Assembly (NCBI GenBank): GCA_965237675.1
Contig: OZ250150.1
Span: 3,712,001-3,776,000 of the forward strand
Length of the DNA: 64,000 nucleotides
Source: Candidatus Latescibacterota bacterium
Lineage (GTDB): Bacteria > Latescibacterota > UBA2968 > GCA-2709665
Direction of reading: 5' to 3'
Both the position numbers and the translations under genes were made by a program. The notes below the pieces were generated by a model. It did no database searches. It worked only from the letters and a program-made list of their open reading frames with translations, and was not told the origin of the DNA. This document shows positions 3,340 to 61,916 of the stretch, in pieces (position 1 is the first letter of the stretch; every line of letters begins with the position of its first letter).

Positions 3340-4471
3340 ATGCCTGGACCGAAGCCGAAGTATCAACCCGAGTTTGAGACGGAGGAGATCGCAGAGGCTC
3401 GTAGGATTGCACGACAACGAACGGCACCCAGCTCCCATGTTCACCGGGCCAAGATGGTCGTGATCTTGTCGGAGCATCCGGACATCTCGCACGAGAGGCT
3501 GGCTCAAGCCGTTGGGGTGCACCCGAGAACGGTGATGAAATGGCGAAAGCGCTGGTCGGTTGAGGGTTTTTCACTGTTGGATCAGCCTCGTAGTGGAAGA
3601 CCCCCGGTTTTTCCCCCCCGAAAGCGTCGCTGAAATTAAGGCCATCGCCTGCCAATTGCCAGCCGTGCGGGAGATCCCGCTTTCCCGCTTCAGCCTCGCA
3701 GAGATGCTTCGGGAAATCCGTTCGGAGTCCACCGTGTCGATCTCCAGGAGCACGCTGTGGCGTCTCCTCAAACAGGACGCCATTCGTCCCTGGTTTCACC
3801 GATCCTGGATCTCTGTCAAGGATCCGCGCTTTCTGGAAAAAGCGGGCCCCGTTTTGGATCTGTATCAAGGTGATTATGAGGGCGTGCCACTGGGGCCCAA
3901 AGACTACGTCCTCAGTGCGGACGAGAAATCGCAGCTCCAGATCCTGGAGCGGGAGTTCCCGTGTTCACCGCCGGGACCGGGCAAACCCATTCACTGTGAG
4001 TCGGACTACAAGCGCCACGGGACCGTGGCCTACCTGGCCGCACTCGATATCAGAAGCGGAAAAATCTTTGGTCGTGTGGATCAAACCACGGGGATCGAAC
4101 CCTTTCAGGCTCTGGTCGACCTCGTGATGAAGCAGGAGCCGTATGCTTCGGCCGAACGCGTGTTCTGGATCCTCGACAATGGGGCTTCCCATCACCCGTC
4201 GACCTCCCCTGCGCGACTCCGGAAGGCTTACCCGAACCTGATCGCCATCCATCTTCCCGTCCACGCAAGCTGGCTCAACCAAATCGAGATCTACTTCTCT
4301 ATCCTTCAAAGAAAGGCACTTACGCCCAACGACCTCGCAGACAGAAAGCAAATGGAAGACCGAATCCTCGGTTTTGAGCGCCGCTACAACCAAACTTCCA
4401 GACCCTTCAACTGGCGATTCACCCGCAACGACCTCGAAGAAAGGCTCCGCGAACTCAAAATCGCCGCCTAA
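3340..4471 (+). CDS. IS630 transposase in two frames (HTH ORF 3340-3633 plus DDE ORF ending 4471)
   Basis: ORF1 has an HTH and DQPRSGRPPVF. ORF2 has SADEK, YKRHGT, ILDN, HLPVHASWLNQIEIYF. The frames join at the T5C7 run at 3608-3619. Confidence 0.88.
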
Positions 4472-6788: not shown

Positions 6789-7714
6789 ATTGGAAGATAC
6801 CGGGGTTTGTGGCTCCGACGCGGATCCCAGCAGAGGGCGTGGAAGATCAGTCGGAAAATATCCATTTTTTCGACCTTCGGGCGACGACGGAAAATATCGC
6901 ACCCTTCGGTGCAGATCTTGTCGAGGATTCGCAACCCGCCCAGCCAGGTCAACCGGAGTTCGTATCTGAGTCGGCCCGAGACCAGATCCGGCAGTTCGGA
7001 CCCCTTTTGGAATAGTACTCGGGTGCGGTCGATTTCGCAGGCCAGGAGGGCCCTGAAGCCGTCGGTGAGCCGTCTATCGGCCAGATCATCTTCCGTGACG
7101 CCGAAACGAGCCATGTCCTCCTGGGGCAGATAGATGCGACCCCGGGAAAAGTCGATTGCGATGTCCTGCCAAAAGTTGGCCAGTTGAAGTGCCGTGCAGA
7201 TCAGATCGGAAAGATATCGGCGGCGTTCGTCCCTGTACGCGAACAGATGCAGTATGAGGCGGCCCACCGGTGCGGCGGAGTATCGGCAGTAAGCCAGCAG
7301 ATGGTTGAACGTCCGATGCCGGTGTGTGACCACGTCCATTTTGAATGCATGGAGCAGGTCGTGCAGATGTTGGCGAGGGATCTGCTGGGACCGGATCGTT
7401 TCGGCCAGGGCAGTTAGTATGGGGCCTTCGGGCGCTTCCAGGCATGTACCCAGTTTTGCCTCCCATTCGTCCAGCCGTTCCGTACGTTCGTCGGGAGTCA
7501 GGCCGGGTTCATCGGCCAGGTCGTCGGCAGTACGTGCGAAGGCATAGATGCTATACACGTGAGGCCTAATCCGGGCGGGAATCAGGCGAGAACCCACCGG
7601 GAAGTTTTCGTAGTGGCTTCTTGTCAGGGCTTCGCAATAGGCAAACGCGTCGTTCAGTGTCGGGGCGGCGGGTGCATACGGAAATGAGTGCGCAGGATTG
7701 GCATTGGGATCCAT
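6785..7714 (-). CDS. hpnC: Hydroxysqualene synthase
   Basis: HpnC-type SHYENFPVGS, ADDLADE, YSAAPVGR, ALQLANFWQD. Start at ATG 7714 is a best guess. Confidence 0.87.
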   Translation of the reverse strand: MDPNANPAHSFPYAPAAPTLNDAFAYCEALTRSHYENFPVGSRLIPARIRPHVYSIYAFARTADDLADEPGLTPDERTERLDEWEAKLGTCLEAPEGPILTALAETIRSQQIPRQHLHDLLHAFKMDVVTHRHRTFNHLLAYCRYSAAPVGRLILHLFAYRDERRRYLSDLICTALQLANFWQDIAIDFSRGRIYLPQEDMARFGVTEDDLADRRLTDGFRALLACEIDRTRVLFQKGSELPDLVSGRLRYELRLTWLGGLRILDKICTEGCDIFRRRPKVEKMDIFRLIFHALCWDPRRSHKPRYLPI

Positions 7715-7808
7715 GTGTAAAAGATAATTGGAAATATTCGACTTCGCCACCTGTTTGTAACCAAAGAACCAACCTGTATGGGTCATCAGAATGCAAGGAG
7801 ATGCTTGA

Positions 7809-8420
7809 ATGACCGAACGTACACGGGCGGCTGCCGGCCCGCGCGTCATCCCGCCGGCGGGAAGTGAGGAGAAATATCACCAAGTCCACGTCTATTACGG
7901 ATTCGGAAAGGGAAAGACGACGTGTTGTGTGGGGCTGGCAATCCGTGTCCTGGGGGCCGGAGGACAGGTGGCCCTGGTGCAGTTCGACAAGGGGTACGAC
8001 GGAGAAACCGAGCATTACTCCGAGCGCCACATATTGAGGAAACTGGACCGAATCGAGCTGCATCCGACGGGATGTGAACGCATGATGCAGGATGGGTCGT
8101 TTCGATTCGGAGCGGAGCCTCAGGACATTGAGGAGGCCCGGCGCGGGCTGGAACTTGCCCGGCTGCTGGTACGGGAGGGAACACAGGATCTGCTGATTCT
8201 GGATGAGATCCTGGCGGCGGTTGCCTACGGTCTGCTGGAACGACAGGACGTGATGGCATTGCTGGATCTGTACGACGCGGACCGCCGGTGCGAACTGGCG
8301 CTTTCAGGACACAAGGTCTGGGACGCACTTGTGGAGCGAGTCAATCTGGTGACAGAGATGCGAAAGGTGAAGCACTACTATGCGCAGGGGATTCCCGCTC
8401 GGAAGGGAATTGAATTTTAG
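7809..8420 (+). CDS. cobO: ATP:corrinoid adenosyltransferase (CobA/CobO/BtuR family)
   Basis: VHVYYGFGKGKTT P-loop, VQFDKG, LLILDEI, LVTEMRKVKHYY...ARKGIEF; AAGGAG RBS. Confidence 0.85.
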   Translation: MTERTRAAAGPRVIPPAGSEEKYHQVHVYYGFGKGKTTCCVGLAIRVLGAGGQVALVQFDKGYDGETEHYSERHILRKLDRIELHPTGCERMMQDGSFRFGAEPQDIEEARRGLELARLLVREGTQDLLILDEILAAVAYGLLERQDVMALLDLYDADRRCELALSGHKVWDALVERVNLVTEMRKVKHYYAQGIPARKGIEF

Positions 8421-8725
8421 CGTTCCGGCTCGGGTGCGTGGAGCCGGCGGGTTACGGACGCATCATTCGATGCTGGGGCGTTTGCGCGGCGCGCGCCTGC
8501 ATACCGGGTGCCCGTCCGGCCATGCGTCCGGACAAACACACGAAGTGGTCGCGTGCCCGCCAACCGGTGCAGGTGTGGTTGTGACGAGGTGAATGCGCGG
8601 TATGACCAAATCGCCTGCCGTCAAGGGATGGGGAGATTCTGTGCTCCGGGTATCGGAAAAGTGTTTGTTTCGCCCTGCCTGCGCGTTTATCTTGCGGTCG
8701 TTTCGCGTTATGCGATGTCTTTCCA

Positions 8726-56850: not shown

Positions 56851-57540
56851 ATGCCTACACTCTTTTTGTTGCCGCTCGCAGCCGTGTTGTTTTTCCTGCA
56901 ACCGGTCCGAGTGTGGGCAAGAGGAACGTGCGGCGAAGGGCGGGAACCGGGGTTGGATTTGCGTTTGAGGCCGTGGATCGGTTTGGCGGGTATCCGGCTA
57001 TTCTACGCCAATGGCACATGGCGCGTGGGGGCGCTTGCGGGGTGGTGGACGGTGTGGACAACGCCGCTGGGAAAAGATAAGAGTCGGCGCAAGAAAAGCG
57101 GCACAAAGGAACGGGCCGAAGGGAAACCGCATGTTCTGGACCGGCTCTCGGCAATGGGCGATCGTTTGGCGCGGATTGGGGTTTATTTCAAGAGGCTGTG
57201 GTTGCCCGCACGGCGATTTGCGTCGCGGGTTCTGAAGGGGTTCCGTTTGCGCCGCTTTTCCTGTAAGGTCGTATTTGGCGCAGCCAATCCGGCCACCACC
57301 GGACAGGTTTTTGGGTACTTCATGGCGGCTTCGTCTTTAGCCGGGATAAGCGGATGCATTGAAGCGACCCCGGATTTTGAGCAGCGGCGGCTGGATGGCG
57401 AAGCCGAGGTGGAAATCCGGGTGTATCCCCACCGGCTGTTATGCGCGGTTGCCTGCGTTGCGTGGTGCGCAGCGCTGGCCTGGTTTTTGGAGCGACGTGA
57501 TCTGAAGCGGAGACAGGGGGCGTCAGGCGTGCCGGCGTAA
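56851..57540 (+). CDS. DUF2953/YtfI-like membrane-associated protein
   Basis: N-terminal hydrophobic segment, FGAANPATTGQVFG and TPDFE motifs; directly upstream of ytfJ. Confidence 0.65.
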   Translation: MPTLFLLPLAAVLFFLQPVRVWARGTCGEGREPGLDLRLRPWIGLAGIRLFYANGTWRVGALAGWWTVWTTPLGKDKSRRKKSGTKERAEGKPHVLDRLSAMGDRLARIGVYFKRLWLPARRFASRVLKGFRLRRFSCKVVFGAANPATTGQVFGYFMAASSLAGISGCIEATPDFEQRRLDGEAEVEIRVYPHRLLCAVACVAWCAALAWFLERRDLKRRQGASGVPA

Positions 57541-57568
57541 TGAGTTGAGTGGACCTTGAGGAGGCGTT

Positions 57569-57970
57569 ATGTCTGTTGAAGATCTCATCAAGACGGTGAT
57601 GACGGAATTCCGCCAAATGGTAAAGACGGAGACGGTTGTGGGCGAACCGATCGAGATAGGGGGGACGGTTGTGGTACCGGTGTCCAGGATTTCGTTCGGG
57701 TTCGGCGCGGGCGCGGGCGCGGACAAGACGGATGGTGGCGGGAGCGGAACCGGCGGCGGGGCTTCCGTGGAACCGCTGGCATTTTTTGTGATTCGAGACG
57801 GAAAAGCACAGATTCTCCCCGTACAGGAGAAAGAAGGATCCATAAAGGCGTTGTTGGATCTGGCACCGGACCTTCTGGCAAGAGTGAAGGCGTTCAAGGA
57901 GAAGAGAGACAGGAAAAGAGCCGAGGCGGAAGTCGAGACCGATTCCGGTGGTGACGACGTGAGCGCATAG
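57569..57970 (+). CDS. ytfJ: YtfJ/GerW family protein
   Basis: TETVVGEPI...VPVSRISFGFGAG...GTGGGASVEPLAF signature; GAGGAGG RBS. Confidence 0.85.
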   Translation: MSVEDLIKTVMTEFRQMVKTETVVGEPIEIGGTVVVPVSRISFGFGAGAGADKTDGGGSGTGGGASVEPLAFFVIRDGKAQILPVQEKEGSIKALLDLAPDLLARVKAFKEKRDRKRAEAEVETDSGGDDVSA

Positions 57971-57982
57971 GTCGGAGGAGCC

Positions 57983-59212
57983 ATGAACCGGCTGCTGCTT
58001 CTGATTCCGACAACGACCTATCGCACTCACGCTTTCATGGCCGCCGCCGCGTTGCTCGATGCAGCGGTGGTGGTGGGAACCGACCGCCGTCAGGCGCTGG
58101 AAAGTCAGATACCTGGAAGTACGCTGGCGCTGGACTTTGCAAGGCCCGCAGCCGCCGTGGAGGAGATTGTCGCTTTTTCGAAGGCGTACCCAATCCGGTC
58201 GGTGGTGGGCGTGGATGATAAGACCGTCCTGATCGCCGCGATGGCATGCAGGGCACTCGGACTTCCGCACAATTCGGTTGCGTCCGTCCGTGCGTCCCGG
58301 TACAAACACGTAATGCGCCAGATGCTTGCTGAAACAGGCCTGCCCTCTCCGGGGTTCAGGCTTTTTTCAATTTCGGAAGATCCGGAGGTGGCCGCCACAG
58401 AGGCGAAATATCCCTGTGTGTTGAAACCCGTGTATCTGTCCGCCAGCCGCGGCGTCATCCGCGCGAACGAAAGCGGGGAATTCGTGACGGCTTTCAACCG
58501 GATTCTGCGGTTGATTTCGGAGTCTGCCCACGATGCGCCTGAAGGCGGAGATTGCATTCTGGTGGAGGACTACATACCAGGCGAGGAGGTGGCGTTGGAG
58601 GGATTGCTGGTGGAGGGAGAGTTACGGACCCTCGCCTTGTTCGACAAACCGGATCCGCTCCGCGGGCCGTATTTTGCCGAGACACTGTACGTAACGCCCT
58701 CCCGGCTGCCCGAATCCACGCAGACACAGATCCGTGAGACCGCGCAGAGGGCCGCGCGTGCCCTTGGGCTGGGCGTGGGGCCCGTGCATGCCGAGTTGCG
58801 GCTGAATAGACGCGGCGTCTACGTCGTGGAAATCGCAGCGCGGTCCATCGGCGGGCTGTGTTCGCGTGTTTTACGTTTTGGCGCCGGCGCGTCGCTGGAA
58901 GAGCTGATTCTACGCCAGGCAACGGGGAACGCTCCGGGCGACTTGACGAGGGAAAATACCGCGGCCGGCGTGATGATGCTGCCGGTGCCGAAGCCGGGAA
59001 TTCTGCGGTCGGTGCAGGGGTTGGAACGTGCACGGTGCGTACGTGGAATTGTTGAGGTCGTGATGACCATTCCCCTGGATCAGCCTGTACAACCGCTGCC
59101 CGAGGGCGACCGGTATCTGGGCTTCATCTTCGCACGCGAAGAGACACCCGTGGCGGTGGAAGCGGCCCTTCGCGAGGCCTACCGCCGTCTCGGGGTGGTC
59201 ATCGAGGGATGA
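57983..59212 (+). CDS. ATP-grasp domain ligase
   Basis: YKHVMR, YPCVLKP, SASRGV, LVEDYIPGEE, PVHAELR, VEIAARSIGG; GGAGG RBS. Confidence 0.87.
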   Translation: MNRLLLLIPTTTYRTHAFMAAAALLDAAVVVGTDRRQALESQIPGSTLALDFARPAAAVEEIVAFSKAYPIRSVVGVDDKTVLIAAMACRALGLPHNSVASVRASRYKHVMRQMLAETGLPSPGFRLFSISEDPEVAATEAKYPCVLKPVYLSASRGVIRANESGEFVTAFNRILRLISESAHDAPEGGDCILVEDYIPGEEVALEGLLVEGELRTLALFDKPDPLRGPYFAETLYVTPSRLPESTQTQIRETAQRAARALGLGVGPVHAELRLNRRGVYVVEIAARSIGGLCSRVLRFGAGASLEELILRQATGNAPGDLTRENTAAGVMMLPVPKPGILRSVQGLERARCVRGIVEVVMTIPLDQPVQPLPEGDRYLGFIFAREETPVAVEAALREAYRRLGVVIEG

Positions 59213-59289
59213 TAGGGTGGCATTCAATCCGACGGGAGCCTGATCGGATTGCCCTGCGTCATTCCTTTAGCGACGTGCTTCCCGTTCTT

Positions 59290-59323
59290 CCAATCAGACA
59301 AGAGCAAACTGCTCTTCGGTTGG
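59290..59323 (-). promoter_or_regulatory. Putative bacterial SECIS element
   Basis: mRNA hairpin AAGAGCA-GUU-UGCUCUU (59316-59300) begins after a 13-nt spacer from the UGA, has G first in the loop, and a lower CCAA/UUGG stem. Confidence 0.7.
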
Positions 59324-60703
59324 CTCCGCTCAGCAGTACCAGGGCTCGGTGAGGCGGGGAAGGGATTGGCGGTTCGAGTCAATACCGGAATCGAACTCCG
59401 GGGCCGGGCGGCCCAACAGGTGGTGGAGGTACGACCGGATTCTATGGAAAATTTCTCGCCGGCTGGTGTCCTGATTCTGAAGCCGTGTGACCAACCGGGT
59501 GAGTTCGTGTTGGAGCCGATCCAACCGTACATCCGGATGTGCCCACGGATATGACAGGGTTTCGGGTGCGAAGGGTTCCACCAGGTCCCGAATCTGGGCA
59601 AGGTCCAGGAGTCTTGAGCCTTTGGGGATGAGCAGCCGTATCGTGAGCTGTACGGGAGAGACGTTCTCGATCAGGTCAAGGCCCGCGAGGGTGTCCAGAA
59701 AGCCGGCATAGTGCTCCATGGTGGCCCAGGGCGTGAACGGGATGAAGGTCGGATTCATTACGAGTTCGTGTCGTCGAAAGAGATGCACGACTTCGATGAA
59801 GTCGTCGACTGTATGGCCCTTGTCCAACCGCGCGAGGACCCGGTCGTCGAGGGACTCGACGGCGGTCGTGACAATCGCGCACCCGGTATCTTTGAGGAGG
59901 GGCAGATAACGGCTATACCCTAGCAGATGTTCGATTTTGACGGTGATGTCGTAGGTGACATCGGGAAATGTTTCGTGGAGCCTTTTTAAAATCGGTATGG
60001 CGTGGCCGATACCGTTGAAGAAGTCGGGATCACCAAACGTGATGTGACCGGCCCCCGCGGCGACCTGTTTCGCAATGTCGTCCAGCACGGTCTCCGGTTG
60101 CACAATACGGAATCTGCCCCTGTACACGGGCACCACGGGACAATGGCGACAGAGATGTTTGCAACCTCGGCTGGCCTCCGTATAGCCGACGGTTGTGAGA
60201 TGTCCGTCCTCTGTGGATAGTCGCGCGTATCGGGAAAGGTCCGGCAGGCCTGTCCGGTCGGGCGGAAGAAACCGCAGCCTGGCCAGGGAAACGACGGGCT
60301 CTTCCTGATCCGGGGTGGCGCTCGAGGCCTCTTGCAGACGCCTGCAGAGTTGAAGCAGTCCGTTTTCGAATTCTCCGCCGAGAATGGTCTGGGCGCCCAC
60401 GCTTCGCAGGAAGGATTCGTTCACGGATGCATAGAGCCCATAGAAACAGAGGTGGGCGTTGGCATTCTGTTCGCGGGCTCTTAAGGCAAGCGGTACGGCA
60501 AGTCGCGTTGCCGTGTGCATTGGCACGTAGAATGCTACCAGATCGGCGTCCCGAACGGCCTCGTCAGGAAAATCGTCTATTGAAACGTCAGCCAGGACAA
60601 CGTGGATGCCCGCCCTCCGCAACCATCCTGCCGGCGAGGCCAGACCGAATGGCTGACGACCCAATTCGTAGGTGGACACGAGCACGACTTTGAATGGACG
60701 CAA
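59294..60703 (-). CDS. CUAEP-tail radical SAM selenoprotein (UGA at 59332-59330 read as Sec), 469 aa
   Basis: EASRGCKHLCRHC (CxxxCxxC), N-terminal B12-binding-like region. The tail reads LTEPWYC-TGA-AEPTEEQFALV-TGA and a hairpin follows the first TGA. The TTG start is uncertain. Confidence 0.88.
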
Positions 60704-60736
60704 TGGGGAGATGGTAGGCAGCCCTTGGTCATCCTG

Positions 60737-60785
60737 AAAAAAACGGCAGACACGGGGGCGGCCCTCACGAAGTCTGCCGTTTTTT
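60737..60785. terminator. Intrinsic terminator after nfuA
   Basis: AAAAAACGGCAGAC...GTCTGCCGTTTTTT, a 14-bp inverted repeat with T-tracts on both strands. Confidence 0.75.
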
Positions 60786-60796
60786 GTAAGCTGTTG

Positions 60797-61381
60797 TTAT
60801 TTTGAGGACTGGTAGTACGGGTTCGTACCACCCGCGTGTTCGGTCACGTCGAGGATCTCTTCAATTTCGGGCACGGCCTCCTTGATGAGGACTTCGACAC
60901 CCTGTTTGAGCGTGACATCCACCATGCCGCAACCCTGGCATCCTCCGCCGAACTGGATGTACGCTTTATTGTCCTTTACGTCGATCAACGAGATATGACC
61001 ACCGTGCATGGCAACGCCGGGGTTGATCTTCTCGTCGATGATGTTCTGGATCTTCTCTGCAGTGGTGCCTTTCAGATGCGAGGGAACCTTGTTGGGATTC
61101 TCTATCTTGAAACCTCTTCCCATCAGGCTGTCCACAAAGTCCAGGATGATGTCCTGGGCATACGGGGCGCTTTCCTGGCCGACGTAGACATTGAACCCGT
61201 CGAACGGGGTGACGTCGTCGTCTTCGTTTTCCTGCCCGTCGGCGACAAAGCCGAGTCGGTAGTTGGCCTGCAGAGGCGATACCGCCTCTGCTTTGACACG
61301 AACGCCAACGATGGCCGACTCCTGGTTCCGGATAAGGTTGACGACCTCCTTCTGCGCGGCTTCGGTTACGGTGATGTTCAT
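60797..61381 (-). CDS. nfuA: Fe-S carrier NfuA (degenerate A-type domain plus Nfu domain)
   Basis: ITVTEAA...LDFVD...GFKIENPN, then INPGVAMHGG...FGGGCQGCG...TLKQGVE...DVTEHAGGTNPYY. Confidence 0.88.
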   Translation of the reverse strand: MNITVTEAAQKEVVNLIRNQESAIVGVRVKAEAVSPLQANYRLGFVADGQENEDDDVTPFDGFNVYVGQESAPYAQDIILDFVDSLMGRGFKIENPNKVPSHLKGTTAEKIQNIIDEKINPGVAMHGGHISLIDVKDNKAYIQFGGGCQGCGMVDVTLKQGVEVLIKEAVPEIEEILDVTEHAGGTNPYYQSSK

Positions 61382-61421
61382 ATCGACCTTCCCCTTAGAG
61401 AGGTGTGCTTTGCCAGGGCGG

Positions 61422-61916
61422 TCAAGACTGAAGCGCCACTGTCGGTCTTGCAGGATGTTCGCGGTCTATTTTCTCCTGAATTTTCATCAGCGCGAACAAC
61501 AGGTCTTCAGGCCGGGGCGGGCAGCCCGGCACGTAGATATCCACCGGCAAGAACTGATCGACGCCCTGAACAAGCGTATACGTATTGAAAACGCCTCCGG
61601 ACGATGCGCAGGCGCCCATCGAAATCACCCACTTCGGATCCGGCATCTGATCGTAGATCTTCTTGAGAACCGGCATCATCTTGATCGATATCCGACCTGA
61701 TACAATGAGCAAGTCGGACTGCCGTGGCGAGAACCGCACAGCTTCCGCGCCGAAGCGAGCCATGTCGAAGCGTCCGGAGAGCGTGGCCATCATTTCGATG
61801 GCGCAGCAAGCCGTGCCGAATGGCATTGGCCAGAGGGATGATTTCCGCGCCCAGTTAATCATTTTGGACAGAGTGGTTGTGAAAACGTTATCGCCAAGGC
61901 CCGTCTCAAGTCCCAT
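61422..61916 (-). CDS. nuoB: NADH-quinone oxidoreductase subunit B-like 4Fe-4S protein (stand-alone)
   Basis: [54 protein letters not shown]. Confidence 0.9.

Follow-up and report, generated by a model that had tools for sequence, protein, structure and literature searches.

A gene for a radical S-adenosylmethionine (SAM) enzyme, carried on 64,000 nucleotides of DNA from Candidatus Latescibacterota bacterium (assembly GCA_965237675.1, contig OZ250150.1, positions 3,712,001 to 3,776,000; this whole stretch is referred to as the window, and coordinates count from its first letter), raises the question of where its protein ends. A standard gene caller stops at a UGA codon directly after a cysteine, but the frame stays open for a short conserved tail, so that the UGA could instead specify selenocysteine (Sec). 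Comparative analysis of related genes and of the genome indicates that the UGA at 59330-59332 on the minus strand is very probably decoded as selenocysteine by SelB and tRNA-Sec via a selenocysteine insertion sequence (SECIS) hairpin.

The UGA codon lies within a conserved reading frame

The open reading frame (ORF) obtained with translation table 11 (59330-60703, minus strand) encodes 457 amino acids (aa) with the C terminus ...LTEPWYC, followed by TGA. On the minus strand the sequence here is CCC TGG TAC TGC TGA GCG GAG CCA ACC GAA GAG CAG TTT GCT CTT GTC TGA; beyond the first TGA (59332-59330) the frame therefore reads AEPTEEQFALV before a second TGA (59296-59294). The full selenoprotein gene would thus occupy 59294-60703 on the minus strand, with a putative TTG start at 60703 and 469 codons, among them that of Sec458 (59330-59332), plus the terminal TGA (59294-59296). 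The Sec codon lies directly 3′ of that of Cys457 (TGC, 59333-59335) and is followed by the 11 codons of the tail AEPTEEQFALV (59297-59329), which are predicted to be translated.

The protein matches the family NF040546, "CUAEP/CCAEP-tail radical SAM (seleno)protein," with 590.5 bits when truncated and 612.7 bits when read through, both above the curated cut-off of 500. The read-through match covers profile positions 1-467 of 468, and the C-terminal C-[U/C]-A-E-P motif of the family is present as WYC-TGA-AEP (59321-59341, minus strand). The Pfam Radical_SAM domain PF04055 is found at residues 178-331 (51 bits); the match of the N-terminal region to the B12-binding-like domain PF02310 (21.1 bits) lies below the cut-off of 32.1. 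The radical SAM cluster motif CxxxCxxC is represented by CKHLCRHC (Cys181, Cys185 and Cys188; 60140-60163, minus strand). In an alignment of 120 sequences, this motif, Cys275 and Cys457 are invariant. The gene is an ordinary member of the catalogued family, and nothing sets it apart. A previous sequence-only reading of the same DNA had noticed the stop at WYC-TGA and the continuation as C-U-AEPTEEQFALV, and had named a CUAEP/CCAEP-tail radical SAM family; the minus-strand sequence and the profile match agree with it on both counts.

Among 61 related genomes searched, 26 contain an above-cut-off NF040546 orthologue, with 53-96% protein identity to the window gene. Each of the 26 has exactly one in-frame TGA, and all read WYC-TGA-AEP. 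The tail AEPTEEQFALV is identical in 21 of these relatives, whereas the linker just upstream is highly variable. Most nucleotide differences in the tail fall on third codon positions (GCG/GCA, GAG/GAA, CCA/CCG/CCC, ACC/ACT, TTT/TTC, and GTC/GTG/GTT/GTA). Similarity breaks off sharply at the second stop, for which 16 relatives have TGA, 8 TAA and 2 TAG. Third-position variation, together with conservation that ends at the second stop, points to a translated sequence.

A wider survey, in which one genome per species was scanned, found at least 588 loci with relatives of the gene, the best 80 of which were kept as named loci. Their record labels include Latescibacterota and Gemmatimonadota (the nearest), many Acidobacteriota, Methylomirabilota and Chloroflexota, as well as Calditrichia, Entotheonella, Verrucomicrobiia and Nonomuraea. 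At the position of the Sec codon, 63 of the best 80 loci have TGA and 17 have a cysteine codon (TGC or TGT; TGY). A larger set of 106 homologous loci consists of 105 in which the tail was found by a search for C[U/C]AEP and one more, L063. The sequence-only reading had predicted that homologues would end in C-C or C-TGA followed by AEP: C-[TGA/TGY]-AEP is kept in all 105, and L063 reads C-TGA-VEP.

A competing explanation takes the UGA for a true stop, with the protein ending at WYC, and assigns the conservation downstream to an RNA element, for instance a terminator or a regulator. The table-11 call and 103 of the best 120 database entries do end there, and the next stop codon follows the hairpin described below. 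The downstream variation, however, shows codon periodicity, is synonymous and reaches precisely to the second stop codon; 17 homologues have TGY at the UGA codon with the AEP tail in frame; the NF040546 profile spans the tail and gains 22 bits from it; and the hairpin is not followed by a U run. A true stop is accordingly very improbable. The actual protein is, with high confidence from this comparison of sequences, 12 residues longer than the product of the gene caller, its apparent stop being a selenocysteine codon.

Several short contigs from RNA libraries match only positions 59298-59353 of the window (TEPWYC-UGA-AEPTEEQFALV), at 90% identity or more, and are flanked on either side by unrelated sequence. 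Across different organisms of those samples, the nucleotide sequence of the tail region is conserved.

Most database entries are truncated at the UGA codon

The family is large: at least 8,000 protein clusters at 90% identity match at E ≤ 1e-30. For 103 of the best 120 database homologues, W[YF]C is the exact end; another 16 are full-length CCAEP proteins and 1 is a CCSEP form, as expected from the earlier remark that standard gene calling would truncate such proteins. Some public records (∼80% identity) already bear the name "CUAEP/CCAEP-tail radical SAM (seleno)protein."

The Sec form has a cultured carrier, Thermomicrobium roseum DSM 5159, where the gene lies on the megaplasmid NC_011961.1 (L137, locus 6947-8455). 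The annotated coding sequence (RefSeq derived) ends with WFC, while the frame runs on as TGA-AEPLEDPSGPV... and contains the hairpin GGACCC-GUC-GGGUCC. A search of the megaplasmid only did not find selB. The neighbors of the T. roseum gene are a pyridoxal phosphate-dependent aminotransferase, a major facilitator superfamily transporter and a GNAT/ABC-ATPase fusion; no ATP-grasp gene is present at this locus.

The existence of the family and the alternation of Sec and Cys in it are already known and catalogued in NCBIfam. One preprint mentions the family and, in that mention, calls it "uncharacterized" (10.1101/2022.07.06.499078). Full-text searches for "CUAEP" and "CCAEP" in the libraries covered returned no other relevant paper, and the family terms searched for are absent from the main text of a 2026 selenoproteome review (PMC13188914). 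What is new here is the covariation of the SECIS element and its loss in Cys forms, the partnership with a ligase, the scale of truncation in databases and the cultured carrier.

A minimal SECIS-like hairpin overlaps the end of the coding sequence

A candidate signal for the insertion of Sec lies within the tail itself. The inverted repeat AAGAGCA-GUU-UGCUCUU starts 13 nucleotides (nt) after the TGA, and RNAfold applied to 59299-59317 (minus strand), the extent of the hairpin, returns the identical 7-bp stem, with an energy of −7.8 kcal/mol and z = −2.81 (0 of 200 shuffled sequences as good). The conserved element is slightly smaller, a 6-bp stem with a 5-nt loop of the form A-G-K-U-N. In the window, its 5′ arm is AAGAGC (59311-59316), its loop AGUUU (59306-59310) and its 3′ arm GCUCUU (59300-59305), with 19 nt from the UGA to the loop. 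According to the bSECISearch model, as described in the selenoproteome review, bacterial elements have a loop of 3-9 nt with a G, followed by G or U, within its first two positions, a stem of 4-16 bp, a distance of 16-37 nt from the UGA and a minimum free energy (MFE) of ≤−7.5 kcal/mol (PMC13188914). The window element falls within every one of these limits; compared with the model, it is minimal and is placed at the very end of the reading frame.

Hairpins were compared across 83 unique TGA forms and 17 unique TGY forms, with n1 denoting the first base after the UGA. Two classes of TGA forms can be distinguished. Class a (53 unique sequences, including the window) has a stem formed by n14-n19 and n25-n30 and the A-G-K-U-N loop, and class b (30 sequences) has a stem formed by n13-n19 and n24-n30 and the loop A-G-U-U. 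In class a, 86.5% of the cells are paired, changes on both sides occur at 4 of 7 pairs (28 cells), and the covariation score is 0.231 (shuffled mean, 0.123); in class b, the corresponding values are 89.5%, 4 of 7 pairs (14 cells) and 0.239 (shuffled mean, 0.106). Neither score was reached by any of 500 shuffles, and sliding the partners left only 44-58% (class a) and 32-61% (class b) paired. For example, one stem pair in class a occurs as AU (28 sequences), GC (18) and GU (5).

Conversely, the hairpin is largely missing where Cys replaces Sec. The mean MFE of n13-n31 is −9.1 kcal/mol in the 83 TGA forms but −2.8 kcal/mol in the 17 TGY forms (Mann-Whitney p = 2e-9, ignoring phylogeny). All 83 TGA forms have the loop G (n21), compared with 12 of 17 TGY forms. 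At the Gln codon, 81 of the 83 TGA forms use CAG, whereas the TGY forms have CAG in 11 cases, CAA in 5 and GAG in 1. The terminal residues of the protein covary with the stem (EEQFAL, EEQVAP, GDQLAP, RDQLVP, GDQLVS and TGQLAG); changes in the stem alter the encoded residues in step, so that both the RNA and the protein shape the last residues of the tail.

Several observations count against this interpretation. The fold of the single sequence is unexceptional in its wider context (z = −0.56 for 39 nt and 0.15 for 76 nt), and over the 76-nt stretch the MFE structure favors a competing pairing. A search of Rfam at permissive thresholds with the 3′ end of the gene, the tail and the downstream region (58900-59700) found no SECIS family and gave only a chance-level match to Guanidine-I (E = 9). 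The percentages of paired cells are inflated because each sequence was sorted into the better-pairing register, which leaves the MFE contrast and the slid controls unaffected. Finally, one Cys form, L133 (TGC, around 4293-4400), keeps a perfect 6-bp hairpin, GCGAGC-AGGUG-GCUCGC, which may be the trace of a recent Sec-to-Cys switch. Chance is excluded because of the comparative evidence and not because of the fold alone. The sequence-only reading had described a 7-bp hairpin 13 nt after the TGA and called it SECIS-like: the hairpin is there in the window, but its seventh pair (A20-U24) is not kept across homologues, while its SECIS-like character finds support in the covariation and in the contrast between TGA and TGY forms. 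In all likelihood, then, the hairpin behaves as a SECIS element, with compensatory changes in its stem and a general absence from Cys forms.

The genome encodes the selenocysteine machinery

Profile searches and ARAGORN were applied to the genome of the window (5.6 Mb in 3 contigs), in which the earlier reading had proposed looking for the Sec machinery. All four components are present with scores above their cut-offs: selA (561 bits), selB (358 bits), selD (363 bits) and tRNA-Sec (73 bits), the last also reported by ARAGORN as tRNA-SeC with the anticodon tca. The genes selA, selB and tRNA-Sec lie side by side on the minus strand (G000:C1:4984023-4987542; loci L001, L007 and L018). The selD gene (G000:C1:309559-310482; locus L014, around 1527-1570) itself contains an in-frame TGA, in the context ACC TGC GGG TGA GCG GCC AAA. 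Read by eye, a hairpin AGUCC-GGUC-GGACU begins at n13 after this UGA, as in the window gene; the MFE structure of the 44-nt stretch is another pairing (z = 0.53).

These genes also bear on two further alternatives. If the TGA were a recent nonsense mutation of a Cys-Cys ancestor, a single TGY-to-TGA change would suffice and the window would hold a truncated or decaying copy. However, the TGA is fixed in all 26 orthologues across 53-96% identity and in 63 of 80 loci of other lineages, the tail is under purifying selection, and the full Sec machinery is present, which makes this account extremely improbable. Equally far-fetched is an alternative genetic code in which TGA is an ordinary sense codon: beyond the open frame itself nothing speaks for it, whereas TGA terminates the orthologous gene in 16 of the 26 relatives, the neighboring ATP-grasp gene ends in GGA TGA TAG, and the selA, selB and ATP-grasp searches encountered no internal stops. 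All three alternatives, a true stop, a nonsense mutation and an alternative code, are already contradicted, the first of them by the comparative data.

An ATP-grasp gene is a conserved neighbor

Downstream of the radical SAM gene and convergent with it, the window carries a gene (57983-59212, plus strand) for a 409-aa ATP-grasp protein of the L-amino-acid-ligase type, with the domains PF13535 and PF18603 (LAL_C2). The gene uses TGA as a stop, ending in GGA TGA TAG at the end of the LAL_C2 domain. The protein shares ATP-grasp_4 and LAL_C2 with the L-amino acid ligases BacD and DdaF, which are its best named equivalogs (71 and 49 bits, respectively). In contrast to these, its NCBIfam matches all lie far below the cut-offs, so it belongs to an unnamed family.

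The ATP-grasp gene is adjacent to the radical SAM gene in 23 of the 26 relatives, and the genomes with an orthologue (E ≤ 3.4e-106) are precisely the 26 of 61 in which the enzyme is found, among them G016, G054 and G056, where the two genes are not adjacent. The other 35 genomes yielded only four weak ATP-grasp matches, of ∼30% identity. Because the genomes are related to one another, the co-occurrence stands for no more than a few independent events. Across the named loci, an ATP-grasp homologue lies within 1.3 kb of the enzyme gene in 50 of 80, and in 41 of the 56 that have at least 3 kb on both sides. It is co-directional and directly downstream in 43 of the 50, convergent in 5 and upstream in 2. 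The other 30 of the 80 loci have no ATP-grasp gene within the DNA examined. From the pattern of neighborhood and co-occurrence, the ATP-grasp protein is proposed to be a functional partner of the radical SAM enzyme.

On the strand of the ATP-grasp gene and 5′ of it (56851-57970, plus strand) lie a DUF2953-like ORF (229 aa, weak match) and a GerW/YtfJ-family ORF (133 aa). The GerW-family ORF was detected in the loci of 14 of the 26 relatives, with the flank often ending inside it.

The enzyme is related to ArsL but has a different tail

The second-best family match of the enzyme is ArsL, the radical SAM enzyme of arsinothricin biosynthesis, NF040542 (279.9 bits; profile positions 2-405 of 423), and this match stops before the tail. 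A Priestia member of the ArsL family is 34% identical over residues 4-401 and has the same domain order. Both proteins carry a short C-terminal tail of vicinal soft residues after a shared W-HPD-x-LD segment; the window protein has a longer linker and the tail CU-AEP, whereas the Priestia protein ends in KRCCLKC. When ArsL cleaves SAM, methylthioadenosine and a 3-amino-3-carboxypropyl species result, and the three C-terminal cysteines of its RCCLKC motif bind As(III), being needed for product formation but not for SAM cleavage, according to two preprints (10.1101/2024.02.01.577332; 10.64898/2026.04.29.721666).

The genomic settings of the two families differ: ArsL-family genes lie in arsenic islands, in contrast to 0 of the 106 CUAEP loci. 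Two such islands are located on plasmids of Priestia megaterium (L138, 2178-3999) and Bacillus cereus AH820 (L139, 1145-2973), where an RCCLKC-tail radical SAM gene is accompanied by an operon of genes for a carboxymuconolactone-decarboxylase-family protein, an ATP-grasp protein and ArsR. An ATP-grasp_4 gene with a weak LAL_C2 match was found near the RCCLKC-tail genes on these two plasmids, the records examined out of 27 from Priestia and Bacillus plasmids among 37 matched. With the plasmid ATP-grasp_4 protein as query, the ligase linked to the CUAEP gene is picked up in 42 of 106 loci at E ≤ 1e-6. Each of the two sister radical SAM families is thus repeatedly accompanied by an ATP-grasp ligase.

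The AlphaFold2 model, for which the 120-sequence alignment served as input, is predicted with high overall confidence (predicted local distance difference test [pLDDT], 91.1; predicted template modeling score, 0.90), with lower block means in the linker (64-77) and the tail (75-80). A sequence search of the PDB gave no chain at E ≤ 0.001, and hence there is no ArsL-family structure for comparison. The best fold match in the PDB is AprD4 (6fd2; Foldseek E = 9.8e-19; template modeling score, 0.67-0.69), followed by TsrM, OxsB and MiaB. AprD4, a radical SAM 1,2-diol dehydratase, likewise has a Rossmann-like N-terminal domain but is only 17% identical, lacks a Cys-Sec tail and catalyzes a different reaction. 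AprD4 and ArsL homologues are noted in a 2026 review to have Rossmann-like domains yet not to bind cobalamin (PMC12931638). The rare vicinal Cys-Sec dipeptide is held in common with HgcA, SAO-locus proteins, a MerT subgroup and KCU-star. The folds of these proteins are not related to that of the enzyme, and the surroundings of the window gene showed no mercury or organometal genes. Where it treats the CU dipeptide, the preprint cited above for the family ties it to heavy-metal interaction (10.1101/2022.07.06.499078).

Other neighbors and transcription

Directly upstream of the radical SAM gene lies an nfuA-like Fe-S carrier gene (60797-61381, minus strand; TIGR03341, 155.9 bits, below the cut-off of 269). 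It is probably the housekeeping copy, as it gives the only full-length NfuA match in the genome. The nfuA-like gene holds this position in all 26 relatives and in 10 of the 80 named loci; further upstream on the same strand are an Rrf2-family regulator gene and nuoB. Between the nfuA-like gene and the radical SAM gene, a terminator-like hairpin with a U run (60738-60785, minus strand) ends 35 nt before the TTG start; the fold of 60738-60792 (minus strand), with flanking A and U runs, has −25.5 kcal/mol (z = −5.32; 0 of 200 shuffles). A scan with consensus promoter and terminator patterns found no promoter-like site and missed this terminator, its loop being too long for the pattern. No obvious ribosome-binding site was seen before the TTG start.

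In the named loci, an aconitase gene is near the enzyme gene in 31 of 80 cases and lies divergently upstream in 30 of them (for example, L113, 3254-6130, and L067, 3173-5854, both on the minus strand). This arrangement, upstream of the radical SAM/ATP-grasp pair, is that of many Acidobacteriota-type loci. The neighbors are often Fe-S proteins (aconitase; nfuA, nuoB and the Rrf2 regulator in the lineage of the window), which may be coincidence. A DUF169 (PF02596) gene lies downstream of the enzyme gene in 12 of 80 loci (for example, L083, 4543-5262), and between enzyme and ligase in 5; a literature search on DUF169 returned nothing bearing on its function. Several neighbor clusters that appeared to be conserved in a first pass turned out to be antisense shadow ORFs inside the aconitase and ATP-grasp genes and were rejected.

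Contigs from the RNA libraries of three studies extend over the gene and run across both the UGA and the tail. Three of them, ∼95% identical to the window, span 59080-61500, and shorter ones within the gene are 95-99% identical. These contigs are assembled, derive from relatives and may include DNA carry-over, so that they give a weak hint of expression.

Possible reactions of the Cys-Sec tail

What the Cys-Sec pair does can be approached through ArsL. The sequence-only reading had proposed a redox arm or a soft metal or metalloid site loosely analogous to the ArsL tail, a proposal with which the second rank of ArsL among the family matches is consistent. Apart from ArsL, no radical SAM enzyme of canonical fold is known to make a 3-amino-3-carboxypropyl species. 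The mechanism that we prefer, tentatively and by analogy, is an ArsL-like transfer in which a soft atom bound by the Cys-Sec pair receives the 3-amino-3-carboxypropyl group; it is possible rather than probable. The vicinal pair Cys457-Sec458 sits on the C-terminal tail in the place equivalent to that of the ArsL cysteines. The [4Fe-4S] cluster would cleave SAM, whose 3-amino-3-carboxypropyl group would pass to a soft nucleophilic atom, a metalloid or chalcogen, bound by Cys-Sec. The product would be a nonproteinogenic amino acid, which the co-conserved ATP-grasp enzyme of the L-amino-acid-ligase type could then ligate; an ArsL-type product, being an amino acid, would fit the substrate class of such a ligase.

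Several findings weigh against this mechanism. The score against the ArsL profile does not reach the cut-off of 450, and the tail, CUAEPTEEQFALV, lacks the RCCLKC motif. The Cys-Sec pair offers two soft ligands, compared with the three reported for ArsL. No arsenic gene was matched in the 106 loci or in the 64-kb window with B. cereus plasmid queries for ACR3, ArsC, ArsR, ArsD, a MIP channel and an ArsN-like GNAT protein, arsM not being among the queries; because CUAEP loci have no such genes nearby, the analogy with ArsL would concern the chemistry and not arsenic metabolism. Furthermore, the housekeeping setting (nfuA and nuoB; aconitase in 31 of 80 loci) and vertical inheritance fit a core function better than an antibiotic, and the ATP-grasp gene is missing from the examined DNA of 30 of the 80 loci.

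Part of this evidence suits another role for the tail, that of a redox or hydrogen-donor arm, which would form a selenenylsulfide instead of binding substrate and would give up a hydrogen atom or electrons to quench a substrate radical in a canonical 5′-deoxyadenosyl reaction. The C-terminal Gly-Cys-Sec-Gly of mammalian thioredoxin reductase, which forms a selenenylsulfide, provides a model. The pair does follow a poorly conserved linker with low pLDDT (block means of 64-77, with 75-80 in the tail), Sec and Cys replace each other, as they do in redox selenoproteins, the enzyme has the canonical CxxxCxxC motif, and the housekeeping and Fe-S context lacks metalloid genes. However, the Cys-rich tail of the nearest characterized relative, ArsL, binds substrate and is not a redox element, and a redox arm leaves the conserved amino-acid-ligase partner unexplained. 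By our estimates, such an arm is somewhat unlikely, ArsL-like transfer remains the tentative choice stated above, and the remainder falls to something else.

The ArsL-like mechanism can be extended to a pathway. The Cys-Sec radical SAM enzyme and the ATP-grasp protein could form a widespread, mostly vertically inherited two-enzyme pathway, in which ArsL-type transfer to an atom other than arsenic, possibly selenium or sulfur on the Cys-Sec pair, would be followed by ligation to a dipeptide or amide. The pathway would range over Acidobacteriota, Methylomirabilota, Chloroflexota and the lineage of the window (labeled Latescibacterota or Gemmatimonadota). In this full form, which again leans on the analogy, the proposal is unlikely.

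Implications

As a selenoprotein, the gene offers a clean case of a minimal SECIS element whose stem dictates the last residues of the protein. The likely key residue and the tail are missing from most public entries of the family, including that of T. roseum. The family is very large and has no assigned reaction, and the conserved ligase partner, together with a cultured host of the Sec form, makes that reaction approachable by experiment. If the two-enzyme pathway were real, it would be a second natural example of this cleavage of SAM, situated in core metabolism and not in an antibiotic cluster.

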